Positions 3,723 to 51,080 of a stretch of DNA of 52,983 nt are shown piece by piece. Both the position numbers and the translations under genes were made by a program. The notes under the pieces were generated by a model that was not told the DNA's origin, did no database searches, and was given only the letters and a program-made list of their open reading frames with translations. Positions within the stretch are counted from its first letter, which is position 1. The number at the start of each line of letters is the position of its first letter. The stretch is from Candidatus Sungiibacteriota bacterium (GTDB lineage Bacteria > Patescibacteriota > Minisyncoccia > Sungbacterales > HO2-52-23), in contig JACPMG010000011.1 of the NCBI GenBank assembly GCA_016186095.1, positions 1-52,983 on the forward strand, written 5' to 3'.

Positions 3723-5822
3723 CTAAATATCCAGGTTTTTTACTGCCTTGGCGTGGGTCTGAATAAATTTTTTACGCGGTGGGACCTCATCCCCCATTAG
3801 GATGTCAAAAATACGATCGGCTTCGGCGCCGTCCTGAACGGCGACGCGCTTCATCATACGCGTTTGGGGGTTCATGGTCGTGTCCCACAATTCCGCAGCA
3901 TTCATCTCTCCTAGGCCTTTGTAGCGCTGGATTTCAGCGCCTTTTATTTCGCCCGTCTCTGTCGATTCCGCGCCCTTGGCCACCGCTTTCTGCTTTTTCG
4001 CTTCTATTTTTTGTTTTTTAAATTCTGCCACGACTTTGTCACGTTCGTTGTCAGAATAGGCGTAACGGGCGGTTTTCCCTGATTGGACCCGATAAAGCGG
4101 CGGCTGGGCAATATACAGATACCCCCGATTTATTACGGTGGGGAAATAACGGTAAAAAAGTGTTAAGAGCAGTGTGCGAATATGCGCGCCGTCAACGTCG
4201 GCATCGGTCATAATCACTATGCGATGGTAGCGGAGGCGCGATTCGTCAAATTCGTCTCCAATGGCCGCCCCCAAGGCGATGATCAGGGATTTTATCTCTT
4301 TGGACGTGAGCATTTTATCGAGCCGAGCTTTTTCCACGTTCAAAATTTTTCCGCGAAGCGGCAAGATAGCTTGGAATTTGCGGTCGCGGCCTTGTTTGCT
4401 TGAGCCTCCGGCGCTATCCCCCTCCACCAAAAATAATTCCGACTCTTCCGGATTTTTTGACTGGCAGTCGGCAAGTTTGCCGGGAAGCATGAGGCCCTCA
4501 AAAGCGCCCTTGCGAAGCACTGTGTCGCGGGCCGCTTTGGCGGCCTTGCGGGCCTTCTGCGCCAGGAGCGCTTTTCCTATAATTTCTTGCGCGTCGCGCG
4601 GATATTTTTCCAGCCATTCTTTGACGGATTCTCCAACGACTGCCTCCACCGCAGTCCGCGCCTCCGGATTGCCGAGCTTGGCCTTGGTTTGCCCCTCAAA
4701 TTGCGGCTCGCGCAGTTTTACGGAAATTATGGCCGTAATTCCTTCCCGTACGTCATCCCCGGTAAGCGTCTCATCGTCTTTTTTGAAATAATCGTTCTTT
4801 TTTGCATAGTCATTGAGCGCTCGCGTGAGTGCCGTGCGAAACCCGGTCAGATGCATGCCGCCTTCGCCAGTATGGATGTTATTGGCGAAAGATATTTCTT
4901 TGCCTTGCAGATCGTCGGTGTATTGAAATGCGGCTTCCACGAGGATTTTTCTTGAATCCACGGGTGCTTCTTTGGAGATATAAAAAATATTTTCGTGTTT
5001 CGATGTTTCGTTCCGGTTGAGATATTTGATGTAGGAGATAATGCCGCCCTCGAAATAAAAGGAATGGGAATTACGAAGTATGGTCCCGTCTTTGGCTTTG
5101 CTGCCATCACGCTCGTCAAGAATCGCGATTTTTACTCCCTTGGTAAGGTAGGCCTGTTGCCGCAGATGATCAAGGATCCGCGCCCAGTCAAAGGCAATTT
5201 TTTCTCCGCCAGAGGCGGATCCGCCTTGGGCGGAAAAAACTTCCGCGTCCGGCTCGAAAGTAACTGCGGTTCCCGTCCCTCTGCATTTCCCCGTTTTTTT
5301 GACGGCATATTTTGGTTTCCCCCGCGCATATTCTTGAGCATATTGAGCTCCCTCGCGGCAGACCTCCGCTTTCATCCAACTCGATAGTGCATTGACTACG
5401 GAGACGCCTACGCCATGAAGCCCGCCGGATACCTTATATGATTCGCCTCCGAATTTAGCGCCGGCATGGAGCGTGGTCATTACGGTTTCCAGCGCTGATT
5501 TTCTAGTTTGCTTGTGGATCTCAACAGGAATTCCGCGGCCATCGTCTATCACCATGACGCGATTTTGCGGAAGCAGGGTTATCGCAATATTTTTTGCGTA
5601 CCCGGCCATGGCCTCATCAAGGGAATTATCAACAACCTCCCAAATTAAATGATGCAGGCCGTCTACGCCCGTTGATCCGATATACATTCCGGGGCGCTTG
5701 CGCACCGGCTCCAGGCCCTCGAGAACATAAATATCCTTGGCGGTGTAGCCGTTGGATGCGGAAGTTTTCTTTTCCCTACGCGCCTGTTTTTTGTGGACAG
5801 TTTTACGAGGTTTTTTTGTCAT
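3723..5822 (-). CDS. gyrB: DNA gyrase subunit B
   Basis: YIGSTG, LHHLIWEVVDNSLDE, the EGDSAGGS Toprim motif and PLRGKILNVEKA. Start taken at MTKKPRK (5822) rather than the 9-codon longer ORF-track start at 5849. Confidence 0.96.
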   Translation of the reverse strand: MTKKPRKTVHKKQARREKKTSASNGYTAKDIYVLEGLEPVRKRPGMYIGSTGVDGLHHLIWEVVDNSLDEAMAGYAKNIAITLLPQNRVMVIDDGRGIPVEIHKQTRKSALETVMTTLHAGAKFGGESYKVSGGLHGVGVSVVNALSSWMKAEVCREGAQYAQEYARGKPKYAVKKTGKCRGTGTAVTFEPDAEVFSAQGGSASGGEKIAFDWARILDHLRQQAYLTKGVKIAILDERDGSKAKDGTILRNSHSFYFEGGIISYIKYLNRNETSKHENIFYISKEAPVDSRKILVEAAFQYTDDLQGKEISFANNIHTGEGGMHLTGFRTALTRALNDYAKKNDYFKKDDETLTGDDVREGITAIISVKLREPQFEGQTKAKLGNPEARTAVEAVVGESVKEWLEKYPRDAQEIIGKALLAQKARKAAKAARDTVLRKGAFEGLMLPGKLADCQSKNPEESELFLVEGDSAGGSSKQGRDRKFQAILPLRGKILNVEKARLDKMLTSKEIKSLIIALGAAIGDEFDESRLRYHRIVIMTDADVDGAHIRTLLLTLFYRYFPTVINRGYLYIAQPPLYRVQSGKTARYAYSDNERDKVVAEFKKQKIEAKKQKAVAKGAESTETGEIKGAEIQRYKGLGEMNAAELWDTTMNPQTRMMKRVAVQDGAEADRIFDILMGDEVPPRKKFIQTHAKAVKNLDI

Positions 5823-5951: not shown

Positions 5952-8009
5952 CTATTTCCTCAATTCCCACCCTTTTTGCTCAAGGGCTTTGGTGATTTTT
6001 TCCACGAGTTTATTTATTTCTTCGTCCTTGAGTGTCCGGTCGGGCGATTGAAAGATAAGATGAAACGCCAAGCTTTTTTCTTCGGCGTCGCGCATATCTT
6101 CGTCCTGAAAATAGTCGAAAAGATCGGTATCTGCGAGGAGTTTTCCGCCTGTATTTTCTATAATATCGAGCACATGTTCAACTCTTGTGTCTGCGGGCAC
6201 GACTACTGCCAGATCGCGTATAATAGCCGGATATTTGCCAACTGGCCTGTATTCGGATTCGGTGGTTGCCGCGCGCCACAATTTTCCAAAATCAATTTCC
6301 GCGGCCACGATCCGCGCCTTTGCTTTTATATTTTCTATTATCACCGGATGGACTTCGCCTATATTCCCTATTTTTTCATCCCCAATTTTTATTTCAGCAA
6401 ATCGGTACGGATGGAACAATGTTTGCGATTTGCGATTTGCGTTTTGCGATTTTCTGCTTGGCGCGTCATCATACCAATGATCGCTAATTCCCATTTTTTC
6501 TAGAAGCTCGTCAACCGCCCCCTTTAGCCGATAAAATTCTTCTTCGCCCGATGTATTTTTTTGGGCAAGGACGATAACGAGGTCTTTGTGCTCGTTTATT
6601 TTCGGACCTTGGAAACTTTTACCGATTCCGAAGATCTTAACGCTATCGAAATAACGCGAATTTTCCGCGGCCGAGGCGACATATTTGATCAAAATTCTGG
6701 GAATAAGGTATTTTGTCTCTGGATTCATTGGATTTTCCAGCGAAATTGTTCGGCTAGCATCCATGCTAAACTTTTTCAGTTCCTCATCCCCGGTAAATTC
6801 GTAAAGCCAGCTCTCCGTAAATCCGGCGCCGGCAAGAAAATCCTTAATGCGCTCTTCCCACCAGACCTCGTCATTGCGGCGCGCCGGATGTATGGCAACC
6901 TCCGGTAAACGAGCGGTAATTTTCTCATAGCCGAACATACGCGCCGCCTCCTCCACAAGGTCCTCCTCAATTTGCAGATCGCGCCTGATCGTAGGAATTT
7001 CCACGACAAAATTTTCTCCGTCTTTTTCAACCCCCAGTCCGAGCCGTTCAAATACGGTTTTGTAAAAAATCGGGGCAAGCTCCTGGCCAATAACGCTATT
7101 GGCGTATGCGGGGCGGAAAAGTATATGAGCGGGAGCGACCTTTTCAGGATAAATATCTATTAGCGGCCCCATACGTTTGCCGCCGTATTTTTCTAGAAGC
7201 TCCATCGCTCGGGCAAGTCCGGTAAGCGTCCGATTTGGATCCAGGCCTGCGGCATAAAGTTTTGAGGCCGCAGAGAAGAAGTTTAGCGCGCGGGAAGTTT
7301 TATATATTCGCACGGGGTCAAACGTTGCAGCCTGCAGAAGTATTTTTTTGGTGTTTTTGGACACGGCGGAATTTTCTCCGCCCATGATGCCGGCCAGATC
7401 AACTATGCGGTTGGCGTCCTCGATGACGATAGCTCCCTTCGGCAGAACGTGTTTCGTGCCATCAAGCGTGGTTAGCTCTTCTCCTCGACCTGATTCTCTT
7501 ATAATAAGTTTGCCCCCCGGAATTTTATCAAGATCGAAGGCGTGAAGAGGCTGTCCTGTTTCCAACATCACGTAATTAGTAATATCTACCACTGCGTCAA
7601 TTGGCCGAAGTCCGCAGGTAGTAAGCCGTTCCCGCATCCATTTCGGCGATGAGCCGATCTTTTTTATTTCTAAAATCTGCGCGGTATATCGCGGGCACAA
7701 TTCGGTTTTGGAAATTTTGATTTTTAGGTTTTGGTGCGCCCGGGCTTTAGATTCTGAAAGTTGTTCTGGATTTTGTAACTCGGACTTAGAACTTTTCTGG
7801 AGAATCGCAGCTATTTCTTTGGCCATTCCCCAGTGGTGTCCCGCATCAGAGAGGCGGTTGGCGGGAATTTTTGCATCAAGCGCGAAATCTCTTTCGACCT
7901 TCTCGACAGTTTCAACCTCAAAGGAGCGGATATTCAAAATCTCAGCCAGTTTTTGCGGCGATTCCTTAAGATTTATTAATTTTTTGAGCCAATTATATGA
8001 GAATTTCAT
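5952..8009 (-). CDS. pheT: phenylalanine--tRNA ligase beta subunit
   Basis: 685 aa. N-terminus MKFSYNWLKKLI plus B3/4 and B5-type blocks, immediately downstream of pheS. Confidence 0.95.
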   Translation of the reverse strand: MKFSYNWLKKLINLKESPQKLAEILNIRSFEVETVEKVERDFALDAKIPANRLSDAGHHWGMAKEIAAILQKSSKSELQNPEQLSESKARAHQNLKIKISKTELCPRYTAQILEIKKIGSSPKWMRERLTTCGLRPIDAVVDITNYVMLETGQPLHAFDLDKIPGGKLIIRESGRGEELTTLDGTKHVLPKGAIVIEDANRIVDLAGIMGGENSAVSKNTKKILLQAATFDPVRIYKTSRALNFFSAASKLYAAGLDPNRTLTGLARAMELLEKYGGKRMGPLIDIYPEKVAPAHILFRPAYANSVIGQELAPIFYKTVFERLGLGVEKDGENFVVEIPTIRRDLQIEEDLVEEAARMFGYEKITARLPEVAIHPARRNDEVWWEERIKDFLAGAGFTESWLYEFTGDEELKKFSMDASRTISLENPMNPETKYLIPRILIKYVASAAENSRYFDSVKIFGIGKSFQGPKINEHKDLVIVLAQKNTSGEEEFYRLKGAVDELLEKMGISDHWYDDAPSRKSQNANRKSQTLFHPYRFAEIKIGDEKIGNIGEVHPVIIENIKAKARIVAAEIDFGKLWRAATTESEYRPVGKYPAIIRDLAVVVPADTRVEHVLDIIENTGGKLLADTDLFDYFQDEDMRDAEEKSLAFHLIFQSPDRTLKDEEINKLVEKITKALEQKGWELRK
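6422..6449. repeat. 4 x 7 nt tandem array (TCGCAAA in the sense strand) inside pheT
   Basis: The plus strand reads TTTGCGA TTTGCGA TTTGCGT TTTGCGA. It encodes RKSQNANRKSQ. Confidence 0.85.
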
Positions 8010-14870: not shown

Positions 14871-15329
14871 TTAATAATTAACTTGAAAGCCGCGTTTTAC
14901 CACCCTTAGGGGGTTGGTCCCGCAGCGGTATTGCCCCGAAGTTATAATCTCGGTATTTCCTCCGGTCTTGGATACGCGGATCGTGTAGCAAGCGCCGGAT
15001 TCGGTATCAAATGTTTGCGCCGGGAAACAATTGATCCCGGGAGTGGGACAGATTTCCCCGGTTATCCTGTCGCGAAAAAGCATCTTTTCAATCCCCTGAT
15101 CGGCGGCGTAAAAAGCTACGAACGAATCGGCTATTTCGCCGGATATTTTTATCTGTCCGAGGACAACATTAAAAATTCCTATGGATATAGAAAAAAGCAC
15201 AGATAGAATAACCACCACTAGAAGGAGGGTAATGCCCCGTTCCCCGGAAGATAAGGGGTAAAAGATAAAGGATAAAAACCTTCCTTTTTCATTTTTGTCT
15301 TTTGTCTTTTGTCTTTTGTCTTGAATCAT
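14871..15329 (-). CDS. PilX-like minor pilin / pilus assembly protein
   Basis: 152 aa with a hydrophobic ITLLLVVVILSVLFSISIG segment after GERG. The ATG overlaps the upstream stop (ATGA). Confidence 0.6.
   Translation of the reverse strand: MIQDKRQKTKDKNEKGRFLSFIFYPLSSGERGITLLLVVVILSVLFSISIGIFNVVLGQIKISGEIADSFVAFYAADQGIEKMLFRDRITGEICPTPGINCFPAQTFDTESGACYTIRVSKTGGNTEIITSGQYRCGTNPLRVVKRGFQVNY
15294..15321. repeat. 4 x 7 nt tandem array (AGACAAA in the sense strand) in the 5' coding end of the PilX-like gene
   Basis: The plus strand reads TTTGTCT four times exactly. It encodes QDKRQKTKDK directly after the ATG. Confidence 0.9.
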
Positions 15330-22051: not shown

Positions 22052-22058
22052 AGCGTCA

Positions 22059-22086
22059 GTTACTGGTAACCAGTTACCGGTTATTA
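22059..22086. repeat. 4 x 7 nt GTTACCA-type array forming the pilin2 to response-regulator spacer
   Basis: GTTACTG GTAACCA GTTACCG GTTATTA. Self-complementary. Confidence 0.75.
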
Positions 22087-22521
22087 CGGCGTTGCCGTAT
22101 GGACTCCGGCGGATTTACCGGAAATACTGTTCGTTTCCAGATAATAGGTAAGCGTATAGGTTGAGCCGTCTGCGGAATCGTACGCATATTGGTAATTGCC
22201 GGAATTGAAAGGATCGACAGGCACCTGGTTAAGCGCGCCGTCATTTACCAGCGCCACGGATGCCTGGTCCGCGCCGGATAGGGGGCCGGAGTAGATAGGA
22301 TAAGTCCTGTTGTTGACCGCATATATGGCCAGGGCGTTTTGCAGGGTTTTTATTTCCGATTCGCGTTCCGCGTCTCTTGATCGCGCACGGGAAGACGATA
22401 CTTGTACTAAAATGAGCGATCCCAGAAGCACGATGATCGCCATTACGACCAGAAGTTCGACTATCGTGAAACCAACCGCTCTGTTTGTAATTTGTAATTT
22501 GTAATTTGTAATTTTTTTCAT
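22084..22521 (-). CDS. type IV pilin (second pilin)
   Basis: MKKITNYKLQITNRAVG|FTIVELLVVMAIIVLLGSL. The ATG overlaps the upstream stop (ATGA). Confidence 0.85.
   Translation of the reverse strand: MKKITNYKLQITNRAVGFTIVELLVVMAIIVLLGSLILVQVSSSRARSRDAERESEIKTLQNALAIYAVNNRTYPIYSGPLSGADQASVALVNDGALNQVPVDPFNSGNYQYAYDSADGSTYTLTYYLETNSISGKSAGVHTATP
22484..22511. repeat. 4 x 7 nt tandem array (TTACAAA in the sense strand) inside the prepilin leader
   Basis: The plus strand reads TTTGTAA four times exactly. It lies between the ATG and the G|F cleavage site. Confidence 0.9.
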
Positions 22522-24183
22522 ACTACCTCCAAGAGCTCTTCTAGCCCGATTAATCCTTTTAGCACTTTCAGTATACCATCTTGTTTTAGGGTAATCATCC
22601 CCTGGCGTTTTGCTTCCTCGCTGATACGCGACTCCGAGGGGCCGGTGAGTATGATTTTTTCAAGTTCCGGAGTCATGGAAAGAACCTCAAAGATGCCGGT
22701 CCGTCCCCGGGTACCTTTCGGACAGGAAGGACCCGCCTCGGCCTGATATATTTCCTGCAGCGCCTCTTTTTTTATCTTTTCGCGCGCATCCGCCGGCAGG
22801 GCATCAATTTCCTTGGCGATGAGTTCCTTCATTTTTGTCTGCAATTTAGTTTTTTTCCTCGAGTCCGGACAAAGCTTTCGCGCCAGCCTTTGCCCGACGG
22901 CCAGTATTAGCGTCGGGGGTATAAGGTACGGGTCAATGCCCATATCAATAAGGCGGGGGACCACGCCGATCATGAACCGCCAGTGCCGCGGTTTCTTTGT
23001 CCCGTATCTCGCCTACCATGATGATATCCGGGTCCTGTCTTACTATGTGGCGCAGGCCGGTGGCAAAATCATACCCGATCTCCGGTCGGATTTGAGATTG
23101 ATTCACGCCAGCCACAAAATATTCGATTGGGTCCTCCAGGCTGACTATGTTGGTGCGTTCCTGGTTGAGAATCTGTAAAATCGCATAAAGGGTCGTTGAT
23201 TTGCCCGACCCGGTGGGTCCGGTGATTAGTATCATCCCGTAGGGCCGTTTGATGTTTTCTTCTAGGAGAGAAAGATTTCTCCCTTCAAGGCCGAGGTCGG
23301 AAAGCGTTTTGACACCCGCCTCCGGATCAAGAATTCTTATGGCGACTTTTTCTCCGAAAGCGGTGGGGAAAGTGGATACGCGAAAATCTATATCCCGGCC
23401 CATAATTTCTGCGTGGAACCTCCCGTCTTGCGGGATCCTCGTTTCATCAATTTTAAGATTGGTCATGACTTTGATGCGGGTCACAATCGCCGGACGCACG
23501 TCCAGGGGCAGGAGAAGACTTGTATGCAGGACTCCGTCTACGCGAAAACGCACGCGCAGTTTATCGCGCGCCGGTTCAATATGGATGTCCGATGCGTGCC
23601 CTTCTACCGCGTGACGGAGGATTACGGCCATCATTTTGGTGACCGGCGCCTCTTCGACAATTTTGGCCGGCTCCTCGCGTCTTATTTTAACCTCTTCCCC
23701 CAGCGCTTCATATTCTTTTTCGAATTCGCCGAGGGCCTTGGTGACCTCGCCGGACAAACTGCGGTACTCCCCCAGGACGTTTTCCAGATCGGACGGGGTT
23801 ATGACAAAAATTCTAGAAGGCAGATTGGCGCGCGCGGCGATAAATTTCAGGGCCTCCTGTGCCGATACGTCATCGGGGAAGAGCATCCCAATTTCAAGGT
23901 AGCCTTCGTTTCTGCCCAACGGGATCATCTTATAGTGGCGCGCCGATTCTTCCGGAATATCGCGCAATGCTTCAAAAGAGACGTTTAGGCCGCGCAAGAA
24001 TTTTGTTGGGTATCCGGTAAGTTCACTTTTAGCGGCAGCCACGTCTTCCTCCGTCACCCCGTACTGGTAGAGAATTTCCTCCACGGGAACCTTTTTATCT
24101 TTGGCCTCTTTTCGTACTAGGGCGGATTTGGCGAGATCGAGAATATTTTGGGAAATGAGAATGTCTATGAGTGATTTGGCCAT
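22518..24183 (-). pseudogene. pilB: pilB/GspE-type assembly ATPase, disrupted (internal deletion plus frameshift)
   Basis: The 412-aa ORF ends ...MVGEIRDKETAALAV-HDRRGPPPY*. The 151-aa ORF resumes in another frame at MIGVVPRLIDMG. About 18 residues matching [18 protein letters not shown] of the intact copy (the His box) are missing. Confidence 0.75.
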
Positions 24184-24259
24184 GGTATACTACGAATTAC
24201 GTATTTTTACGAATATACGAATTCGTACATTCTAGCGGACTCGTTATTCGTAGAGATCA
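24184..24259. repeat. TACGAAT cassette, copy A
   Basis: Left arm ACTACGAATTACGTATTTTTACGAATATACGAAT, palindrome TACGAATTCGTA (24216-24227), right end GTTATTCGTAGAGATCA. The termini are inverted repeats. Confidence 0.85.
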
Positions 24260-24544
24260 GAATGGTAAAAATGGATTTTCTCTTCCTATTTTTGTCTGCT
24301 CTCTTATTTTTTCTCCGGCCATGCCCTCTGGCGCCTGTAAGGATTTAAAGAAAGGGTCCTGGAATAAAGACACGTCAAGCTGAAGATCTTTGAGCCGTCT
24401 TAATTCGGAAAGTCGTGTTGAGAAAGAACCCTCGGCGCGAGCTGTCTCCGGTCGGGTCGCGGTTTGGGCGTAGCCATACCATAGGTAGGCAATTAAGCCA
24501 AGGACGATGACAAAAACGAGAAGAAGGATTGTTTGTCTGTTCAT
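24257..24544 (-). CDS. small membrane-anchored pilus protein (PilP-like?)
   Basis: 95 aa. One N-terminal transmembrane helix and a C-terminal GRENPFLPF resembling the R(D/N)PF motif. Sits downstream of pilO. Confidence 0.45.
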   Translation of the reverse strand: MNRQTILLLVFVIVLGLIAYLWYGYAQTATRPETARAEGSFSTRLSELRRLKDLQLDVSLFQDPFFKSLQAPEGMAGEKIREQTKIGRENPFLPF

Positions 24545-24624
24545 GGGATACTACTAATTACGAATATACGAATGGACAAGATCGGTTTCCTGTATCCGTA
24601 CCGATCCGTAATCCTTAGCGGCCA
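24545..24624. repeat. TACGAAT/TACGGAT cassette, diverged copy D
   Basis: ATACTACTAATTACGAATATACGAAT, then ATCCGTA CCGATCC GTAATCC words, plus an inner GATCGGT/ACCGATC stem. Confidence 0.6.
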
Positions 24625-25197
24625 TCACTGATAATACGTTTTTGCTTTGATAGCTATATCCAATGCCGATTCTTTCTCCGGTGATACAAAGGAGATGTTT
24701 TCTACGTCAATCAAGCGGAGATTTTTTTCCAGGTCGCTCAGGAATTCTTTTAATGCTCCATAGGTGCCGGAGATAGAAATCCCTACCGGAAATTCGTTAA
24801 TGCCGCCGCCTTTGGGGATAGAAACTGGCGCGCCGCCGGGCCTGGGCTGTCCGCCAGCGGAGACGGCAGGCGCCGCAGTGCTTGATAGATCGATTCGCCG
24901 CAAGACAAGATTGCTTTCTGCGGCCATGCGCTCCAAGGACACCAGAAAATCAGCGGCATTAACTCCGTTGGGCAGCGCCAGGTCAATGCGGTCCAGATTG
25001 TCGGCTGACACCGAGTTTATTAAATTAAGGAGCGCATCGCGATTTTGGATTAGCGTATCAAATTCCGCGCTGATACCGCCAAGCGCTGTTAAATCTTCCC
25101 TCAGGCTCCTGAAATTCTGCCATTGAGGAGCAAGATAAAAAAGGCCCAGGACAGCTGTCCCAAAAAGCAGAATGATAGTTATGAGCAGACGAGGCAT
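24625..25197 (-). CDS. pilO: pilus assembly protein PilO-like
   Basis: 190 aa. N-terminal transmembrane helix, then coiled-coil, then a ferredoxin-like C-terminus. Placed after pilM and pilN. Confidence 0.65.
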   Translation of the reverse strand: MPRLLITIILLFGTAVLGLFYLAPQWQNFRSLREDLTALGGISAEFDTLIQNRDALLNLINSVSADNLDRIDLALPNGVNAADFLVSLERMAAESNLVLRRIDLSSTAAPAVSAGGQPRPGGAPVSIPKGGGINEFPVGISISGTYGALKEFLSDLEKNLRLIDVENISFVSPEKESALDIAIKAKTYYQ

Positions 25198-25209
25198 AGT
25201 GTTTTGCCG

Positions 25210-25230
25210 GTTACTAGTTACCAGTTACTA
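25210..25230. repeat. 3 x 7 nt GTTACCA-type array in the pilN-pilO spacer
   Basis: GTTACTA GTTACCA GTTACTA. Confidence 0.75.
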
Positions 25231-25239
25231 TTCATTAAT

Positions 25240-25788
25240 TTACGGGCGCAGATGCAGAATGGACGGCTTAAAAATTATGGCCATTTTAAAATTTGCCAGG
25301 TTTTTGGCACCGATGGACAGGCCGCCGAATTCCACCGTCTCAATGTTGGGATCTCCTTCCAGCAGGGCAATTTGTTCGGCCAGCACCGCATAGCTTGCCG
25401 CTTCTCCGGTCATGTCGAGTTTTCCCGCGCTGCCGCTGAAATTAAAGTTTAAAAATCTAACCCGCGGGTGGGTATGCGTTTCAAGAAAATTCAAAATATT
25501 TGAAGGAAAAGAGTGCTGGGAAAGAAGAGCGCGCATTGATTTGAGGCGAGCATCCAGAAGAAAAATTTGATTTAAAAGTTCAGGCCTCAATTCTTCCTCT
25601 TTTGTTTTTACCTGTGCTATGAGTTCATCTCGCGCCTTGCCCTGCGCATTATTCAATAACCAAAGGCCTCCGTATCCGGCAGAGGCGAGAAAAAAGGCAA
25701 GAAGAGAAAAATAGAAGAGGATGGATCCGCCGCGGCGCATCTGCAGTGTCTGCAGCGGAGATTCTTTTTTGAGAAGTAGATCGGCCAT
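25240..25788 (-). CDS. pilN: pilus assembly protein PilN-like
   Basis: 182 aa. One transmembrane helix after a short cytoplasmic N-terminus. Directly downstream of pilM. Confidence 0.65.
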   Translation of the reverse strand: MADLLLKKESPLQTLQMRRGGSILFYFSLLAFFLASAGYGGLWLLNNAQGKARDELIAQVKTKEEELRPELLNQIFLLDARLKSMRALLSQHSFPSNILNFLETHTHPRVRFLNFNFSGSAGKLDMTGEAASYAVLAEQIALLEGDPNIETVEFGGLSIGAKNLANFKMAIIFKPSILHLRP

Positions 25789-25862
25789 ATAGACTACGAA
25801 TTACGTATTTTTACGAATGTACGAATTCGTACTTTCATACGATTCGCTATTCGTGGTGATCA
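25789..25862. repeat. TACGAAT cassette, copy B
   Basis: ACTACGAATTACGTATTTTTACGAATGTACGAATTCGTAC...GCTATTCGTGGTGATCA. About 45 nt match copy A with 2 mismatches. Confidence 0.85.
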
Positions 25863-26966
25863 ACGGGTGGTGATTTCTCTTAAGGCCAGTCCGGCAGCGA
25901 CCGAGAAACTGGGACCGATTTCCCGCAAGGTGGGCTGCATAAAAGCCGGCGTTACCATTCGCGCAAATGGGTTTCCCCGCGACACTTCCACCCCGAACTT
26001 TCCGCTTACATAATCCACAATACCTTTAAGATTTGAGCCGCCGCCCGTAAGGTTGATTTTCTGAATTTTCCTCGGCGCCTTTCGATTGTAGAGGGCGATC
26101 ATACGCTCTATTTCAGCAAACAGGGTTTCTACGAGGGGAGCCATAATGGAAGTTATTTCCCGTTCCTCGATTCTCTCGGAAAGGCCGGTTGTCCGTTTGA
26201 TTTCCTCCGCGCGTTCCCTGGTAATATTCATGCCTCGCTCCAGCGCCCTTGTCAGCTCCTGCGATCCACGGCTGAAGTTGTGGGATATGCGTACCCGTCC
26301 TCTGTCTACCAGCGAAAGCGTGGTTGAGGTCTGGCCTAAATTTATAATAGCGGTGGGCGTGGGATCTGTCCCCATTAAGGAACGTACGATGCTGAATGTT
26401 TCAACCTCCAGGGCTCTCGCATGAATTCCAGCAAGCTCAGCGACGCGTTTGTATTTTTCCACTATCTCGCGGGGTACGGCCACCAGCAATACGTCAATCG
26501 TATCCGTCTCCGCCTCGGACTCAAATATATCCCAGTCAAGTACTACCTCTGCGGCGGGAATTGGCACGTATTTTCTCGCTTCATACGGGACGGCCGCGTC
26601 TATTTCTCTCTTAGAGATTCGCGGGAAAGATATTAAGGTTATGAAACTTGCTTCTGCCGGTACGGAAAGCACGGCCTCTTTTGTCGTAACATTCGATTCC
26701 CTAAGAAGATCTTTAAGGAGCGAGGATATATCGCTGTCAAGATAGCGTAAAAATCCCCCTCCGCCGCCGGCGCTTTTTAAATATCCCTCGGTAAGCAGTT
26801 CGCCGTAGGTCTCCAATATGGCGCGTTCGGACTCATACTTTAATTGTACCACCTTGGCCGAATGTGTTCCAATGTCAATGCCAATAACGCTCGTGGGTTT
26901 ACCGAATATAAACCCGAGCGAAAATTTGGGAAAAGTAATTTTTTTGAAAAAGGGGATATCCACCAT
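25860..26966 (-). CDS. pilM: type IV pilus assembly ATPase-fold protein PilM
   Basis: 368 aa with an actin-like fold: IGIDIGTHSAKVVQL, INLTGGGSNLKG. Confidence 0.88.
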   Translation of the reverse strand: MVDIPFFKKITFPKFSLGFIFGKPTSVIGIDIGTHSAKVVQLKYESERAILETYGELLTEGYLKSAGGGGGFLRYLDSDISSLLKDLLRESNVTTKEAVLSVPAEASFITLISFPRISKREIDAAVPYEARKYVPIPAAEVVLDWDIFESEAETDTIDVLLVAVPREIVEKYKRVAELAGIHARALEVETFSIVRSLMGTDPTPTAIINLGQTSTTLSLVDRGRVRISHNFSRGSQELTRALERGMNITRERAEEIKRTTGLSERIEEREITSIMAPLVETLFAEIERMIALYNRKAPRKIQKINLTGGGSNLKGIVDYVSGKFGVEVSRGNPFARMVTPAFMQPTLREIGPSFSVAAGLALREITTR

Positions 26967-27021
26967 CTGCTGTCCATTATATGATATTTTCAGCCGCAGA
27001 GCACTAGTTTATAATACCTCT

Positions 27022-27735
27022 ATGTCAATTTTATCCCTTAAAAAAGCCATTCTGGACCTTGTTTTCCCGGTTCGGTGTCTTGGCTGCGGCCAGGAGGGTG
27101 ATTTTTGTTGTGTATCTTGCCGATCCCGACTCTATTTCATTCCTCCGACCTGCTTTGTATGCAAAAAGATGGTTCCGGCTAAGAAAAGAGCTCCTCCCGG
27201 AAGAACCTGTACTGCGTGCCGTAAAAAGTCCAGTATATACGCGTTTTTATCCCCATTTTTATATAATGATGAGGTCATACGCGGACTGGTTTCTTCACTG
27301 AAATATCAGAGAGTTAAGTCCTTGGGCCCGACATTGGGCGATATGCTTACGGAATATCAGCAGAAATTTGATGTTTCCCTGCCCAGGGGCGCCCTTTTTA
27401 TACCTATTCCGCTTCATACCGGCAGACAGCGCATTCGCGGCTTTAATCAGGCCGAACTCATTGCCAAGCGTCTCGGAGAACGCTTGGGCCTCGCCATGGA
27501 GACAGGAGCTTTACTAAAGGTCAAAAAAACAACTCCGCAGGTGGAGTTATCGGCCGAGGAAAGGCGCAAAAATGTGATAGATACATTTGCCGTGAGCAAG
27601 GCCATGGCCGTAAAAGGGAGAACCGTTTTACTGCTTGATGACGTGAAGACGACCGGCGCCACCCTGGAGGAGGCGGCGCGAGTATTGAAAGAGGCCGGAG
27701 CCAAAAAGATATGGGCGATTACCGTTGCTCATTAA
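27022..27735 (+). CDS. comFC: ComF-family phosphoribosyltransferase
   Basis: N-terminal zinc-finger Cys pairs (CLGCG...CVSC...CFVC...CTAC) and the PRTase motif VLLLDDVKTTGATL. Start at MSILSLKK (27022), not the antisense-overlapping track start. Confidence 0.85.
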   Translation: MSILSLKKAILDLVFPVRCLGCGQEGDFCCVSCRSRLYFIPPTCFVCKKMVPAKKRAPPGRTCTACRKKSSIYAFLSPFLYNDEVIRGLVSSLKYQRVKSLGPTLGDMLTEYQQKFDVSLPRGALFIPIPLHTGRQRIRGFNQAELIAKRLGERLGLAMETGALLKVKKTTPQVELSAEERRKNVIDTFAVSKAMAVKGRTVLLLDDVKTTGATLEEAARVLKEAGAKKIWAITVAH

Positions 27736-27763
27736 ATAAAACACCGCTGGGCGAGCCAGGCGG

Positions 27764-28144
27764 TTAGGTAAAGATTTTTTTCAGTGCTTCGGTGCCGAAC
27801 CCTTGCACCAACGCAAGGTCAGGTTTTGTAACCCGTAGGAGCTGCTTATTAGAATATGCACGCCTGTTACGAATTATACGGTTTCCGTCCAGGCCTTCCC
27901 TGCCGTTCAATACAACATAAGGGGCTGCGGTTGCAAAAAGCGTTCGGTTACGCATCCTCCTAATTCTTTTGAGCGATCTTTTCAGAAGATCAAGCATTTT
28001 TTGTTTTGCGGCCATATCATCTTTTGCTTCGAAATCAATGTCTTTGATAAGTAAGCGGGGTGAACGGCGAGGGGTATCCAGAAAGATCAATATTAAGTTC
28101 CACTTTTCCTTTCCATCCGCAGTCAGCGCTCTTTCAAGAGCCAT
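27764..28144 (-). CDS. hypothetical protein with a C-terminal helix-hairpin-helix-like motif
   Basis: 126 aa. LALVQGFGTEALKKI fits hxxhxGhGxxxAxxh. GGAG lies 9 nt before the ATG. Confidence 0.45.
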   Translation of the reverse strand: MALERALTADGKEKWNLILIFLDTPRRSPRLLIKDIDFEAKDDMAAKQKMLDLLKRSLKRIRRMRNRTLFATAAPYVVLNGREGLDGNRIIRNRRAYSNKQLLRVTKPDLALVQGFGTEALKKIFT

Positions 28145-28256
28145 GCCTTGGTCTCCAGTTCAAAAAATCAAGAGCCAAAACAAAAATAGCACAACCCGTG
28201 CTTTTTGTCCATGTTGTGTTTTGTAGACATCAGGTGTCTACACAGATGCAAAAGTT

Positions 28257-28282
28257 CAATACGCCACCCGGGTGGCGTATTG
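28257..28282. terminator. perfect 26-nt GC-rich palindrome downstream of pilB
   Basis: CAATACGCCACCC|GGGTGGCGTATTG, 24 nt after the pilB stop. Two more hairpins follow in the sense direction, and the last carries a T-run. Confidence 0.55.
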
Positions 28283-28305
28283 AAAAACTTCAGCATGGTG
28301 CGTTT

Positions 28306-30063
28306 TTATTCGCTAGTAACCCGCAATACCTCCTCAATGGATGTTATCTTTTGCGCGGCTTTGATGAATCCTTCCTCGAGCATGGTGAGCATGCCTTCTT
28401 CCCGGCCCCGTTTTTCAATATCATCCGACGTTGAGTTTTTCATGACGAGTTCCTTTATGGATTCGGACATCTCCAACACCTCATGTATTCCAATCCGGCC
28501 TTTATACCCTTCGGGACACTCTTCTCCTTTTTGCGGCCTTCCCCATTCCACTTTCTCAATGGCGGTTTTCGCGTCAACTATTTTTTCGCGTTTCAAAACC
28601 TCCAGTACACGATCAAGATTAATGTCTTTTTGGAGACTGGTGATTTCTCCACGCGATAGCTTGTAGGCTTCATGCTCTGGGCATAACCGCCGTACTAAAC
28701 GTTGCGAGATGATGGCGGTGACAGTAGAGGCAATCAAAAACGGCTCTACCTTCATGTCCAGTAACCGCGGGAGCGCTCCGGCCGCGGAATTAGTATGCAG
28801 AGTCGATAGCACTAAATGGCCGGTGAGCGCTGCGTTTATGGCGAGCCCCGCGGTTTCATTATCGCGGATCTCGCCCACCATGATTATATTTGGATCCTGG
28901 CGCAGGAGCGAACGCAGGCCGTTGGCAAAAGATAGTCCAATGTCCGGGCGGACCTGCGTTTGGTTTATATGCGGGATGCGATATTCGATCGGATCTTCAA
29001 CGGTGGAGATATTGACGCCGGGCTTATTCAGCATTTCCAGAATCGTATAAAGAGTGGTGGTTTTTCCCGAGCCGGTGGGGCCGGTGGCTAGTATTATTCC
29101 GGTCGGACGCCTGATGGCGCGCTGGATTCTTTCTAGGTTCTCGCCCCAAAATCCGAGCTCCTCCAGAGCAAATCCTTTAACGCTTTCCGGCAGAAGCCGC
29201 ATCACTATTTTTTCTCCGTCAAATACCGGCAGTACAGATACGCGGAAAGAAATCCTGTATTCTTCATTTTCAACTTTAAATCTGCCGTCCTGCGGCAGGC
29301 GGTGCTCGTCGAGTTTTAGATTGGACATTACTTTGATGCGCGCGACCAGGCCCGGGGCGATTTGTTTGGGAAGAGTCATCGCGTCGTGCAGTATCCCGTC
29401 TATGCGGTAGCGTACCAGTACCTCTTTTTCCATGGGCTCGACGTGTATGTCAGAGGCGCTTTGCAATATGGCGTGGCGGATTAGGGTATCCACGATGCGG
29501 ATAACCGGAAGATCTTCGGCCAGTTTTTTTAAATTCTCCGTTTCTGTATCTCCTTTATCTCCTCTTGTCTCCGTCGCGACTTTGAGTGTGTCCGCCTCTT
29601 TCTTAAGAATTTCTCCGAACTCTGCTTCCAGCGTCTTCTGATATTGTCGTAGAATATGCTGTATTGATTCACTCGTGGTCAGGCGGGGAAGAATCCGCAG
29701 GCCCTCTTTTTTCCGGATAAACTCTATAGTTTGAATATCGTCCGGGTCGATCATGGCCACCTCTAAATCGCCGTCCGTTTTTTTGAAAGCAATTATATTG
29801 TGCTTGCGGGCTATGGGCTCGGGTATAATGCGAAGAATTTGTGGAGGGATTGTCTCGCGGGTGAGATCAACAAAGGGTATGCCAAGTATATAGGCCTCAA
29901 GGCGTTTAAGTTCGTCTTCCTTGGCGTAACCTTTATTGAGCAGGACCTCGCGTAGTGTCTTGCCCAGTTTTACCGCTTCTTCTTCCGCTTCTTTCAAGAG
30001 ATCGGTTTTGATGAGCCCTGAGTCCAGGAGAAATGCTTTGAGTTGAGATTCTTCAACGCGCAT
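28306..30063 (-). CDS. pilB: type IV pilus assembly ATPase PilB (GspE family), intact
   Basis: 585 aa. T2SSE_N domain, Walker A GPTGSGKTTT, MVGEIRD, TGHLVLSTLHTN and tetra-Cys CPEH...CPEG. Confidence 0.93.
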   Translation of the reverse strand: MRVEESQLKAFLLDSGLIKTDLLKEAEEEAVKLGKTLREVLLNKGYAKEDELKRLEAYILGIPFVDLTRETIPPQILRIIPEPIARKHNIIAFKKTDGDLEVAMIDPDDIQTIEFIRKKEGLRILPRLTTSESIQHILRQYQKTLEAEFGEILKKEADTLKVATETRGDKGDTETENLKKLAEDLPVIRIVDTLIRHAILQSASDIHVEPMEKEVLVRYRIDGILHDAMTLPKQIAPGLVARIKVMSNLKLDEHRLPQDGRFKVENEEYRISFRVSVLPVFDGEKIVMRLLPESVKGFALEELGFWGENLERIQRAIRRPTGIILATGPTGSGKTTTLYTILEMLNKPGVNISTVEDPIEYRIPHINQTQVRPDIGLSFANGLRSLLRQDPNIIMVGEIRDNETAGLAINAALTGHLVLSTLHTNSAAGALPRLLDMKVEPFLIASTVTAIISQRLVRRLCPEHEAYKLSRGEITSLQKDINLDRVLEVLKREKIVDAKTAIEKVEWGRPQKGEECPEGYKGRIGIHEVLEMSESIKELVMKNSTSDDIEKRGREEGMLTMLEEGFIKAAQKITSIEEVLRVTSE

Positions 30064-30144
30064 GCGGTCTCGATGCCAATATGCGAATGAATACCAATTA
30101 TACGAATTCGTATCATTGGTAAATTAGTATATTCGTATCGATAC
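30064..30144. repeat. NNCGAAT/CCAAT cassette E, running into the 3' end of the response-regulator gene
   Basis: TGCCAAT aTGCGAAT gaaTACCAAT, then a 26-nt palindrome (30094-30119) centred on GAATTC, then GTATATTCGTATCGATAC. That last stretch encodes the final residues VSIRIY. Confidence 0.75.
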
Positions 30145-30447
30145 TTTAGTGGTGGCGCCGAGCTGTAGTGCCTTCTCTACGTCCGTGCTTCCTTCAAGAT
30201 TGGTCAAAATCACCACCGGAATATTCTTGGTTGCCTCATCGCGTTTTAGCTCCTGCAAAACCTCAAAGCCGTCTTTTTTGGGCAGAATCAGATCAAGAAG
30301 GATCAAGTCCGGCTTTTCTTCTTTGGCCAAACGCAATCCGATCTCTCCGTCAAGAGCCGATGACATCTGGTATCCTTCTTCGGAAAGAATCTGGGTCGCG
30401 GCGCGTTGAAGCGCGGATTCATCCTCTATGAAAAGTATCTTCTTCAT
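30124..30447 (-). CDS. receiver-only response regulator, C-terminally truncated
   Basis: 107 aa. DES..., LLDLILPKKDG, then ends LQLGATTKVSIRIY*. The two paralogs continue GADDYxIKAHF plus about 20 more residues. Confidence 0.7.
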   Translation of the reverse strand: MKKILFIEDESALQRAATQILSEEGYQMSSALDGEIGLRLAKEEKPDLILLDLILPKKDGFEVLQELKRDEATKNIPVVILTNLEGSTDVEKALQLGATTKVSIRIY

Positions 30448-30545
30448 GGGTTACTACGAATTACGAATTTTTACGAATGTACGAATGAACAAATTAGTAT
30501 TCGTATATTCGTACTGATTAGTAATTCGTAGTGATCATTATTTTG
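30448..30545. repeat. TACGAAT cassette, copy C
   Basis: ACTACGAATTACGAATTTTTACGAATGTACGAAT...GTAATTCGTAGTGATCA. Perfect 12-bp terminal inverted repeat ACTACGAATTAC/GTAATTCGTAGT and a 15-bp inner stem. Confidence 0.85.
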
Positions 30546-42120: not shown

Positions 42121-42149
42121 TTGACAACCGCTTCTTATCAAACTATACT
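42121..42149 (+). promoter_or_regulatory. strong sigma70 promoter, TTGACA-17-TATACT
   Basis: -35 at 42121-42126 and -10 at 42144-42149, upstream of nusA. Confidence 0.65.
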
Positions 42150-42177
42150 GATAATGTTTACTGATTTTGATTGTTCT

Positions 42178-42201
42178 GGTCCGTGGAAACGGACCCTTTT
42201 T
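42178..42201 (+). terminator. intrinsic terminator inside the nusA leader (candidate attenuator)
   Basis: GGTCCGT ggaa ACGGACC followed by CTTTTT. It lies ~25 nt after the predicted transcription start and ~80 nt before the nusA start. Confidence 0.6.
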
Positions 42202-42250
42202 ACTAAGTTTGTAGGAATTAGCTTGTAGGCGTTAGGAGAAAGTCTCTTAA

Positions 42251-42278
42251 AGCTACAAGCTACAAGCTACAAGTTACA
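42251..42278. repeat. 4 x 7 nt tandem array (AGCTACA/CTACAAG) abutting the nusA TTG start
   Basis: AGCTACA three times, then AGTTACA, then AGCTTGG, which contains the start codon. Confidence 0.85.
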
Positions 42279-42281
42279 AGC

Positions 42282-43703: not shown

Positions 43704-43811
43704 ATTTCTAATTTCTAATTTCTAATATCTAATTTCTAATGAAACTCCCAACATTAGATGTCTAATGTCTAAAACGGCCGTCACTAGACATTAGAAATTA
43801 GGAATTAGACA
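43704..43811. repeat. self-complementary cassette built from ATTTCTA / ATGTCTA words (nusA-hppA spacer)
   Basis: Five ATTTCTA-type units (43704-43738). An 11-bp perfect stem TCTAATGTCTA / TAGACATTAGA (43761-43771 / 43785-43795). The right arm TAGAAATTAGGAATTAG complements the left array. Confidence 0.8.
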
Positions 43812-43820
43812 TTGCGTAAC

Positions 43821-49448: not shown

Positions 49449-51035
49449 CTAAGTAATGTCAAACAAAATGTTTCTTCCGGTCATCTCCTGCGGTCTATCC
49501 AAATTCAGCAGTTTCAGGATCGTGGGGGCGATATCGGTGAGTATTCCGGCAACCTCTGATTTTTGTTTTAAGATTTCGGCCTCGCTCCTCGGCATTTTTC
49601 TTTGGAAATTTTTCCCCAGCAAATAAAGCGGCACCGGGTTCATGGAATGTTTGGTCAGCTTCTCCCCGCTTACCGGATCGCGCTTTAACTCTATATTGCC
49701 GTGATCCCCGGTTACGAACATAATGCCTTCACTATTTAGAACGGCGTTGAGCAACTGTCCCAGCTGTTCGTCCAGTATTTCAACTGCCTGCACCGCGGCC
49801 TTAAAGTTGCCGGAATGTCCCACCATGTCGGCATTGGCGAAATTGGCGATCACCACGTCATAGCGGCCAAAATTCTCAAGTATTTTTGAGGTGATGTCTG
49901 CGGCGCGCATCTCAGGCACATCGTCAAAGTGGGCCGTTACCACCGAGGGGACGAGGATTCTCTCTTCCCCGGCAGATGGTTTTTCTTTTCCCCCGTTGAA
50001 AAAGTAGGTAACGTGCGCGTACTTCTCTGTCTCGGCAATATGCAGGTGCTTTAGTCCCGCTTCGGAGAGTACACGCGAAAGAGGCCAGTTTACGTCAAGC
50101 GTGGAGAAAGCCGCATTGACCCGAAGACCTTTTTCGTACTCGGTCATAGTCGCGATAAACAAATTTTGGATTTTTTTCCTGGGGAAATGATCAAAAGAAT
50201 CATCCGCAAACGCATGCGTAAGCTCGCGCATGGAATCCTCGCGGAAGTTAAAGAAAATTAGCGAATCTCCCTCCCTCACTAAAGCGGGCTTGCCCGCCGT
50301 AGTTCCGGTTGCAACCGAAACGAAGGCGGGTTCTATAAACTCGTCTGTTACCCCTTTCTCATATGATTCGCGCAAATACCCGTGGATAGACGATATTTTC
50401 TTGCCTTTTTCTTCGGTAATAAGTTCGTAGCAAGCGCGTACCCGGTCCCATTTCTCGTCGCGGTCCATGGCGTAAAATCTCCCGATGACCGAAGAAAAGT
50501 GGGCATTGGGCCACTCTTGATTTATTCGTTCCTCTAGTATTTTAAGAAATTTTGCCCCTTCTTCGGGAGGAGCGTCTTTCCCGTCAGTGAATATATGGAG
50601 AAACACCCGTTCAAGTTTCTCCCGCTTGGCAAGTTCAAGCAGCGCGTAGAAGTGATCGATGTAACTATGCACCGAGCCGGAAGAAATTAATCCAGCCAAA
50701 TGAAGGCTTGATTTGTTCCGCTGTACGTGCGCCATTGCCTTAAGAAAGGCCTCATTGGAAAAAAATGTTCCGTCATATATTGAGTTTATAATACGCGGGA
50801 GATGATGATATATTACGCGTCCCGCGCCCATGGTAAGGTGGCCGACTTCAGAATTTCCCGCCTCACCCCAAGGAAGTCCGACGGCAACGCCGGATGCCTG
50901 GAGCGTCGTAAAAGGAAAATTACGCTCGATCTCGTCAAGCGTTGGCGTACGCGCGTGAGCCACCGGGTTGCCCTCTTTTTCCAGGGATACGCCAAAGCCG
51001 TCTAGAATTATGAGAAGCAATGGTTTGGGCCGCAT
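49449..51035 (-). CDS. gpmI: 2,3-bisphosphoglycerate-independent phosphoglycerate mutase
   Basis: 528 aa: LIILDGFG, GNSEVGHLTMGAGR, TGDHGN. Confidence 0.95.
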   Translation of the reverse strand: MRPKPLLLIILDGFGVSLEKEGNPVAHARTPTLDEIERNFPFTTLQASGVAVGLPWGEAGNSEVGHLTMGAGRVIYHHLPRIINSIYDGTFFSNEAFLKAMAHVQRNKSSLHLAGLISSGSVHSYIDHFYALLELAKREKLERVFLHIFTDGKDAPPEEGAKFLKILEERINQEWPNAHFSSVIGRFYAMDRDEKWDRVRACYELITEEKGKKISSIHGYLRESYEKGVTDEFIEPAFVSVATGTTAGKPALVREGDSLIFFNFREDSMRELTHAFADDSFDHFPRKKIQNLFIATMTEYEKGLRVNAAFSTLDVNWPLSRVLSEAGLKHLHIAETEKYAHVTYFFNGGKEKPSAGEERILVPSVVTAHFDDVPEMRAADITSKILENFGRYDVVIANFANADMVGHSGNFKAAVQAVEILDEQLGQLLNAVLNSEGIMFVTGDHGNIELKRDPVSGEKLTKHSMNPVPLYLLGKNFQRKMPRSEAEILKQKSEVAGILTDIAPTILKLLNLDRPQEMTGRNILFDIT

Positions 51036-51080
51036 GAAAGTAATTGTAGCATAAAGTTTATCCGGCTGTCTTAGTAGATA

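Follow-up and report, generated by a model that had tools for sequence, protein, structure and literature searches.

We describe here a family of short palindromes that fill the spacers between genes of Parcubacteria, built from arms of four ATTCGTA heptads, a full copy of which exactly fills the interval between one gene's stop codon and the following start codon. Five copies lie in a 52,983-nt contig of Candidatus Sungiibacteriota bacterium (GenBank assembly GCA_016186095.1, contig JACPMG010000011.1, positions 1 to 52,983), the whole of which is called the window below. Three of these copies, cassettes A, B, and C, are well preserved and two are decayed; their membership in a multi-copy intergenic palindromic repeat family of Parcubacteria is well supported. 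The family resembles repetitive extragenic palindromic (REP) sequences and MITEs (miniature inverted-repeat transposable elements).

A sequence-only reading of the window had reported one element in three spacers, at 24184-24259 (A), 25789-25862 (B), and 30448-30545 (C), and its description of them holds. All three are flanked by minus-strand genes of a type IV pilus and two-component cluster. The 34-nt arm ACTACGAATTACGNATTTTTACGAATNTACGAAT has three exact-pattern matches, on the plus strand at 24189, 25793, and 30453, and none in 100 shuffles (0 expected). TACGAAT occurs 27 times in the window against 6.5 ± 2.5 expected; 19 copies are inside 24184-30545, and the other 8 correspond to the chance rate. 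The arm ends 5, 4, and 5 nt from the ATG of pilB2 (A), pilN (B), and a CheY-like response-regulator gene (C), respectively, within the 4 to 5 nt proposed. The far end of all three spacers is ...ATTCGT[AG]G[AT]GATCA, placed by the same reading at or near the upstream stop; its TGA is that stop in A and B, and in C the true stop is a TAA 10 nt further upstream than the terminal TGA. Read in the sense direction, each spacer opens with TGATC at the stop codon, continues with an arm that is partly decayed (CTACGAAT...), and closes on the ATG side with ATTCGTA-n-ATTCGTA-AAAAT-nCGTA-ATTCGTAG, after which come 4 to 5 nt and the ATG. The three are collinear from TGATC to ATG, with TGATC...TAnCCC-ATG in common.

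The inverted-repeat termini were likewise borne out. Copy C is a 34-nt inverted repeat, 85% complementary, with a perfect 12-bp outer stem, and copies A and B retain the outer 8 bp and the proposed central palindrome, TACGAATTCGTA. Folded as RNA, each spacer gives the long hairpin that had been predicted, more stable than its shuffles (Table 1). The diverged copy reported at 24545-24624 is real (partial nhmmer match at 24557-24573), and a further decayed copy, D, precedes pilB1, so that five copies are found, all within 6.4 kb. The 3′ part of D contains GTATAAT and is nearly identical to the sequence upstream of pilB1 in the related locus L130, which is partial because the L130 contig begins 50 nt before the gene. 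The only ATG internal to a cassette is in A, where it opens a 7-codon open reading frame (ORF).

Metagenome contigs were scanned with an 18-base probe, TTTTTACGAATNTACGAAT, which is found at at least 120 loci; groundwater and sediment samples contributed many of these, and the source labels include Nealsonbacteria, Jacksonbacteria, and Sungbacteria. An nhmmer model of the arm, run on 124 sequences (~0.9 Mb), gave 140 full arms among the matches listed. The consensus, ATTCGTAtATTCGTAaaaATTCGTAATTCGTAG, is conserved over the whole arm around the probe and consists of four direct ATTCGTA heptads with start-to-start distances of 8, 10, and 7 nt, ending in ...CGTAG. Two of the genomes that bear arms share only 50% identity in their L24 proteins. 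With several Parcubacteria lineages represented, chance and a purely local duplication are excluded by the heptamer and arm counts relative to expectation together with the metagenome matches. Genes of every kind lie downstream, among them rpoC (twice), tuf, nusG, 12 ribosomal-protein genes, groES, pheT, dnaE, uvrA, recA, and pilC; a pilus-specific regulon is thereby excluded, the arm-preceded genes of other genomes being ribosomal and other housekeeping genes. A phage-borne element was dismissed because the arm is absent from IMG/VR save for four partial matches at chance level. Motif strings of 14 to 15 nt had no occurrence in the searchable literature, and the searchable part of the literature on the Candidate Phyla Radiation (CPR) held nothing relevant on such repeats, on promoters, or on Shine-Dalgarno use and described no CPR counterpart of REP sequences or MITEs. 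Six loci (L017, L021, L053, L057, L063, and L079) carry a separate element that has no more than the first half in common with the arm (ATTCGTAtATTCGTAAAAATTCGCCC...) and then turns into a GC-rich segment; it may be a related but distinct repeat family.

The arms are tied to gene boundaries. The ATG of a long ORF lies within 15 nt of the arm tail for 47% of the 140 full arms, compared with 5% of random positions, and the modal distance is 4 to 6 nt. Arms occur singly or as an inverted pair: about half of the start-adjacent arms have an inverted partner upstream, accepted at a duplex ΔG of -18 kcal/mol or lower, and about a third have none. Of 26 paired elements with a co-directional ORF upstream, 15 have a gap of only 0 to 4 nt between the end of that ORF's stop and the start of pairing. 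In 26 paired elements it is the ATG-proximal arm that carries the A-tract linker, and in 19 it is not. The 36 solo arms comprise 18 in sense orientation, with the tail 0 to 11 nt from the start codon (mode, 4 nt), 9 in antisense, and 9 in neither class; 8 of the 9 antisense arms have their tail 0 to 4 nt past the stop of a gene reading into the arm. It is the tail of the arm, never the head, that adjoins a gene boundary, and the tail always points outward. Only 4 of 42 full unpaired arms are inside coding sequence, and the setting is chiefly between co-directional or convergent ORFs, an extragenic position that is also a criterion of REP sequences. Solo sense arms often have a TATAAT-like box 1 to 22 nt upstream, so such an arm would be a leader and not that promoter itself. 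In some lineages GGAG directly follows the arm. The consensus has TAG or TAA in all three frames when read in sense and no stops when read in antisense.

At orthologous junctions the elements turn over. The PilM C-termini and PilN N-termini are exactly collinear across four genomes, yet the pilM/pilN junction differs in each. The window has a 71-nt ATTCGTA cassette; L133 (PilN 81% identical to that of the window) has a collinear but decayed copy; L130 (74%) has a (CTTGTAG)4...(CCTACAA)3 palindrome, which it also carries between pilT and pilC; and the complete genome L131 (63%) has a TAATG overlap, its remaining junctions being 1 to 19 nt long. The cassette that the sequence-only reading would have sought in relatives is thus decayed, replaced, or missing there. 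Three sites, pilM/pilN, pilO/95-aa ORF, and 95-aa ORF/pilB2, are filled in the window and empty in L131. The locus L075 contains three copies that are near-identical over ~84 nt, a stretch that takes in the loop and reaches up to the ATG. It is well supported that the elements evolve as repeat DNA, being gained, lost, swapped for other heptamer palindromes, and homogenised within a genome. Copies may spread through a transposase, through gene conversion, or through template switching between quasi-palindromes. Direct target-site duplications are absent from the flanks of A, B, and C and of the three L075 copies, in which similarity extends to the stop and start codons, and no transposase domain was present in the scanned window ORFs. 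The 124 sequences contain few outward arm pairs 0.3 to 6 kb apart that could mark a parent element; those checked (L041, L056, L059, and the window) are without a transposase and enclose ribosomal-protein or pilus genes. In L007 (PilM 60% identical), heptamer repeats of AATAACT are present in the pilM/pilN spacer at 2608-2665; the end of this spacer ahead of the start codon, TTGACGCT, is similar to the CTGACGCT at the end of window spacer 22052-22083.

Neither covariation nor comparison of strands gave an RNA-specific signature. In 14 canonical elements, 90% of stem-column cells are base-paired; columns 2 to 4 pair with 67 to 69 in 13 of the 14, and the outermost pair, 1/70, holds in 13, varying among C-G, A-U, and U-A. 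Two-sided changes affect only that outermost pair and one heptad junction, and these 14 elements hold no compensated change in the heptad core, compensation between copies being the check on the fold that the sequence-only reading had suggested. At the variable fourth heptad position, 53 heptad pairs are other than G-C, a count in which some palindromes enter from both perspectives: one is compensated to a Watson-Crick pair, 8 are G.U on the strand read, and the others are mismatches, including 16 A.C that would be G.U on the opposite strand. Stem energies range from -20 to -41 kcal/mol across the family, and among 36 oriented elements the stabler fold is that of the sense strand in 19 and that of the antisense strand in 17 (Wilcoxon p = 0.99). 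The uncompensated core changes and the equal stability of the two strands make the palindrome a property of the DNA and not a conserved RNA structure.

We tentatively favor the reading that these are REP/MITE-like stop-to-start palindromes that are tolerated because the mRNA hairpin holds stop and start adjacent in genomes poor in Shine-Dalgarno sequences. The elements are presumably transcribed, since they lie inside operons, and the RNA would then fold into a 25- to 30-bp AU-rich hairpin reaching from 0 to 4 nt after the stop to 4 to 6 nt before the AUG. We propose this geometry as the condition for tolerance, in that stop and start would stay close in space and termination-coupled initiation of the downstream cistron would survive an insertion of 70 to 100 nt. 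Coupling normally drops within ~20 nt of added distance (PMC12548453); its survival here is suggested by the overlaps used in relatives and the rarity of Shine-Dalgarno sequences. The reading draws further support from the recurrence of this architecture with unrelated repeat units and from arm-less co-directional spacers of 41 to 110 nt, which are structured (n = 78; median fold z = -2.5) and bridged stop to start in 25 cases, compared with 2 of 30 divergent or convergent spacers (8.1 expected). A double-stranded stem of such length would also be a likely substrate of RNase III.

Several observations weigh against tolerated repeats of this kind. Structure directly after the stop lowers coupling in synthetic operons of Escherichia coli (reviewed in PMC12548453). 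That deeply diverged genomes should share one 33-nt consensus and one heptad spacing is not usual where repeats are selfish, and it hints at a conserved reader. Between A and B, ~1 of 34 positions differs in the ATG-side arm and ~9 of 37 on the stop side (manual count), and the far better preservation of the ATG-proximal arm suggests that sequence rather than pairing is selected. Searches of the scanned window ORFs, the flanks of the copies, and the outward arm pairs checked turned up neither a transposase nor a target-site duplication nor a parent element. Solo arms sit in tight stop-to-start junctions without a hairpin, and 9 of the 36 are antisense. Finally, the excess of stop-to-start bridging among the 78 arm-less co-directional spacers is modest (25 observed, 19.1 expected from shuffles). 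In a bolder reading, which we consider unlikely, the heptad arm would be a cis-signal across Parcubacteria, recognised by a conserved cellular factor, either the ribosome or a protein that binds DNA or RNA and reads the heptads, and the stop-to-start modules would be a distinct operon punctuation, with termination and re-initiation across the hairpin base (a bacterial "shunt"), not merely tolerated repeats.

Conservation of sequence and not of pairing, the lack of strand asymmetry, the occurrence of both arm orientations, and a consensus stable over deep divergence would all fit an operator array, in which the heptads are DNA sites of a conserved heptad-reading protein such as a ribbon-helix-helix repressor or a nucleoid protein. 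The omega repressor system of pSM19035 offers a precedent, as the 7-bp heptads bound by omega2 are arrayed in direct or inverted orientation (PMC9499535, PMC4627068). We nevertheless regard operators as unlikely: the same architecture exists with many unrelated repeat units and would need many readers, the heptads are spaced at 8/10/7 and are not contiguous, and the elements lie within operons beside start and stop codons and not over recognisable promoters, at orthologous sites that are unconserved and before genes that share no common function. Rather unlikely, in our view, is a host-selected RNA punctuation, with the intercistronic hairpin as a site of processing and stability that RNase III would cut, so that the upstream mRNA keeps a 3′ hairpin and the downstream mRNA begins with a short leader lacking structure. 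Its substrate would be the long and largely paired stems, located within operons that include those for ribosomal proteins; solo sense arms just past TATAAT-like boxes would yield the same leader as the processed transcript, and RNase III is known to bind and cut Correia elements (PMC2649163). A selected RNA is hard to reconcile with heptad-core changes that are never compensated, antisense folds as stable as sense, and orthologous cassettes that are decayed or missing, and it leaves the antisense solo arms unexplained.

The arms could also act on initiation. At the junction of heptads 1 and 2, TAnATT would serve as a -10-like element of an outward-facing promoter, with a start in the A-tract ~7 nt downstream and a leader of ~20 nt. 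This hexamer retains the critical A2 and T6, its free N falls at the weakly conserved third position, and it occurs only in the gene-ward orientation; some local promoters, such as that of pilM, seem to be -10-only, and the ends of Correia elements create promoters (PMC2649163). We find it quite improbable, given that there is no -35 or TG extension, that a consensus scan of the cassettes was empty, that a better TATAAT box often lies just upstream of solo arms, that stop-side arms and solo arms in antisense would drive transcription into the gene upstream, and that TAnnnT is missing from other heptamer families. Alternatively, sense AUUCGUA repeats before the AUG might replace the Shine-Dalgarno sequence by recruiting the ribosome through S1 or another factor. 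The tail-to-AUG distance of 4 to 11 nt is like that of a Shine-Dalgarno sequence, such sequences are rare in these genomes, sense solo arms outnumber antisense ones by 18 to 9, and the ATG-proximal arm is the better kept in A and B. Such a leader is very unlikely all the same, as some solo arms are antisense and some stop-side arms are well kept, the A-tract arm lies on the ATG side in just 26 against 19 paired elements, and some lineages add GGAG right after the arm. No rRNA signature motif is present in the loci scanned for one. A DNA uptake signal common to Parcubacteria that import DNA through type IV pili is highly improbable. Recognition of DNA irrespective of strand would agree with the strand symmetry, inverted pairs between genes are reminiscent of Neisseria uptake sequences, viral contigs show just the four chance-level partial matches in IMG/VR, and the window copies are inside a pilus cluster. 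The density is low and clustered, however, with none in the 46 kb of the window outside the pilus region; the arm is seldom in coding sequence, its tail is tied to gene boundaries, and many other repeat units have the same architecture.

Expression signals of the window were also surveyed. The sequence-only reading had remarked that cassette-preceded genes lack a Shine-Dalgarno sequence, which is true but not specific to them. A loose pattern was present in 11 of 51 window upstream regions, three of the 11 before doubtful TTG or GTG starts, and in related loci GGAG or GAGG precedes only ~10% of genes; its absence as a peculiarity of cassette genes was therefore dismissed. TATAAT lies 9 nt before the pilM ATG (26967-26985) and TACAAT 7 nt before the ATG of ORF 49449-51035 (51036-51050), and by their sequence both starts are predicted to be leaderless or nearly so. 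A peak of TAnAAT 6 to 9 nt before the ATG is seen in related loci. A leaderless promoter with its -10 box at that distance was dismissed for the arm, which has no hexamer there and too variable a tail-to-ATG distance. An intrinsic terminator was dismissed as well, the cassette stems being AU-rich with no U run after them; a canonical terminator follows pilB1 (28255-28284, minus strand; 13-bp stem with 6 G-C pairs, then CTTTTG), so the genome possesses ordinary ones. In Rfam the cassettes scored below the gathering thresholds, which only tRNAs reached, and a known RNA family was dismissed; C matched the hairpin of a plant miRNA model below its threshold (38 bits, with 83 required).

The window contains other spacers of similar design (Table 1). 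Spacers of the GTAAC/GTTAC type are retained at the pilN/pilO junction in three genomes (the window, L130 at 4786-4833, and L133 at 2722-2766) with differing arrangement of the units. The TTTCTAA array between nusA and hppA recurs in the unrelated metagenome locus L091, and other Parcubacteria loci show the same design with TAGCGTn, CTCTGTG, GTCATA, ATTCGGA, and TTTCTAA units. The hairpin upstream of nusA is terminator-like and the promoter there is of the consensus type. The nusG/rplK spacer sits where other bacteria carry the L11 operon leader.

Table 1. Repeat cassettes, their arms, and related spacers in the window, with positions in window numbering; folds are of the RNA, and z is relative to shuffled sequences
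Feature	Position	Strand	Description
Gene context of the cassettes	24184-30545	-	In gene order, through and beyond this stretch: histidine kinases; two CheY-like receivers; pilB1; pilM; pilN; pilO; 95-aa ORF; pilB2; pilin-like gene; receiver; pilT; pilC; pilins
Cassette A	24184..24256	-	Whole spacer, stop of 95-aa ORF (TGA, 24257-24259) to pilB2 ATG (24181-24183); -22.3 kcal/mol, z = -4.3
ATG-proximal arm of A	24190..24222	-	Four heptads, sense ATTCGTAtATTCGTAaaaatACGTAATTCGTAG; nhmmer 37.8 bits; exact 34-nt pattern
Stop-proximal arm of A, decayed	24242..24254	-	Sense TCTACGAATAACG; pairs with last two heptads
Diverged cassette, pilO / 95-aa ORF	24545..24624	-	3′ arm CCATTCGTATATTCGTAATTAGTAG; 5′ arm of TACGGAT units pairing through G.U; -28.3 kcal/mol, z = -3.0
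Cassette B	25789..25859	-	Whole spacer, pilM stop (TGA, 25860-25862) to pilN ATG (25786-25788); -20.2 kcal/mol, z = -3.6
ATG-proximal arm of B	25794..25826	-	nhmmer 35.5 bits; exact 34-nt pattern
Decayed copy D, before pilB1	30064..30123	-	TACGAATTCGTA core flanked by ACCAAT/ATTGGT; z = -1.2
Cassette C	30448..30545	-	Between two CheY-like receiver genes; best-preserved palindrome; -31.4 kcal/mol, z = -7.3
ATG-proximal arm of C	30454..30486	-	A-tract linker; nhmmer 40.0 bits
Stop-proximal arm of C	30499..30531	+	Own sense ATTCGTATATTCGTACTGATTAGTAATTCGTAG; CTG linker; nhmmer 33.4 bits
GTAAC/GTTAC spacer, pilin-like ORF / receiver gene	22052..22083	-	Same class
GTAAC/GTTAC repeat spacer, pilN / pilO	25198..25239	-	Same class, other unit
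nusG/rplK spacer	1963-2037		Two GGATTAGTGT units split by AAAAAT, with upstream complementary CACAAATCCAC; cassette-like design
Upstream of nusA	42122-42281		In order: promoter TTGACA-17-TATACT; hairpin GGTCCG-TGGAAA-CGGACC and T run; TTGTAG/(AAGCTAC)x4.7 palindrome up to TTG start
nusA / H+-pyrophosphatase (hppA) palindrome	43704..43820	+	(AATTTCT)x5.4 ... ATTAGAA-type x4, stop to start; z = -5.8

Heptamer repeats are also present within genes. A perfect (TTACAAA)x4.4 at 22484-22514 lies in the prepilin leader peptide of the pilin-like ORF 22084-22521 (MKKITNYKLQITNRAVG|FTIVELL), whose orthologues in L130 and L131 lack the repeat and have short leaders; altering the array by one unit would shift the reading frame, making this a candidate phase-variation site. 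A second pilin-type gene, the pseudopilin-like ORF 14871-15329, has a perfect (GACAAAA)x4.3 in its first codons (15293-15322), and a (TCGCAAA)x4.4 array with 91% matches lies in the pheT coding region (6422-6452). The pilB2 gene downstream of cassette A (22518-24183, minus strand) is split into ORFs of 412 and 151 aa by a 50-bp deletion near 22970, as judged against Logan contigs that are ≥99.9% identical and encode an intact 571-aa protein; the split is either a strain variant or an assembly error.

CPR bacteria such as the Parcubacteria are not culturable alone, and to our knowledge almost nothing is known about how transcription and translation start in them. A 33-nt element that keeps one consensus over lineages with 50%-identical ribosomal proteins, at the boundaries of core genes, is a rare handle on CPR gene expression. 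As repeat DNA and nothing more, it would be a candidate for the CPR counterpart of REP sequences and MITEs and would show which insertions a compact, Shine-Dalgarno-poor genome can tolerate; if a reader exists, a new regulon or a new initiation mechanism would be at hand. For annotation, the element marks true start codons and operon junctions in metagenome-assembled genomes.

Several known systems share single traits with the cassettes. In the ribosome shunt of the cauliflower mosaic virus 35S leader, a stop codon lies a few nucleotides 5′ of a stable hairpin and re-initiation occurs just 3′ of it; that system concerns eukaryotic scanning 40S subunits on a viral leader, and the analogy is geometric only. 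Cyanobacterial short tandemly repeated repetitive (STRR) sequences are tandem intergenic heptamers of no known function, but they form plain tandem arrays and not stop-to-start palindromes. Mycobacterial interspersed repetitive units (MIRU) fill intercistronic operon spacers, were first seen in a two-component operon, and overlap with their ends the stop and start codons on either side, an arrangement interpreted as maintaining translational coupling. MIRU are direct tandem repeats of 46 to 100 bp with a small bridging ORF, whereas the cassettes are palindromes whose sense arm has stops in all three frames, and no such bridging ORF is present in them. The operators of the omega repressor of pSM19035 consist of 7-bp units, direct and inverted, that are read cooperatively (PMC9499535, PMC4627068); they are contiguous heptads in plasmid promoters with a known ribbon-helix-helix reader, in contrast to the direct and inverted heptads here, which are spaced at 8/10/7. 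TIGR arrays alternate 8- to 12-nt repeats with 9-nt variable spacers beside a Nop-domain Tas gene (PMC12045711). Such a guide-RNA array was rejected, as the heptads are 0 to 3 fixed bases apart, spacers of the variable kind are missing, and the scanned window ORFs gave no match to a Nop-domain (Tas-like) family.

The closest likenesses are those named by the sequence-only reading, which had called the family REP/MITE-like. A repeat family of that kind it is, with its metagenome loci now in view, and it lacks defining features of REP proper and of MITE proper. The REP, BIME, and REPIN elements of Enterobacteria and Pseudomonas are short multi-copy extragenic palindromes, mostly between co-directional genes near stops, and often form inverted dimers that give long hairpins and are transcribed with the operon (PMC3733652, PMC3116915). 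As to the high copy number of REP sequences, 53 kb of the source genome hold 3 full and 2 decayed copies, with no transposase domain in the scanned ORFs. The REP unit is itself a 20- to 40-bp GC-rich stem-loop linked to RAYT transposases, whereas the arm here consists of four direct AT-rich heptads and does not pair with itself; REP has an unpaired GTAG or CGTC tag (PMC3733652), whereas the GTAG here ends heptad 4 and is paired with a partner CTAC. REP proper was rejected on these two grounds, and the cassettes differ further in reaching the next start codon and in having one consensus across deeply diverged lineages. Like MITEs, they have terminal inverted repeats, small size, no coding capacity, and presence/absence polymorphism; MITE proper was rejected because no target-site duplication flanks the copies. 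Correia elements, the MITEs of Neisseria, are ~100 nt long and gene-adjacent, with terminal inverted repeats, co-transcription, and presence/absence differences between strains; their hairpins are bound and cut by RNase III, and their ends can create promoters (PMC2649163). They differ in 26-bp repeats not built from heptads, a TA target duplication of which the cassettes have no counterpart, an integration host factor site, and restriction to one genus. The heptad element is of the REP/MITE kind and departs from defining features of both.

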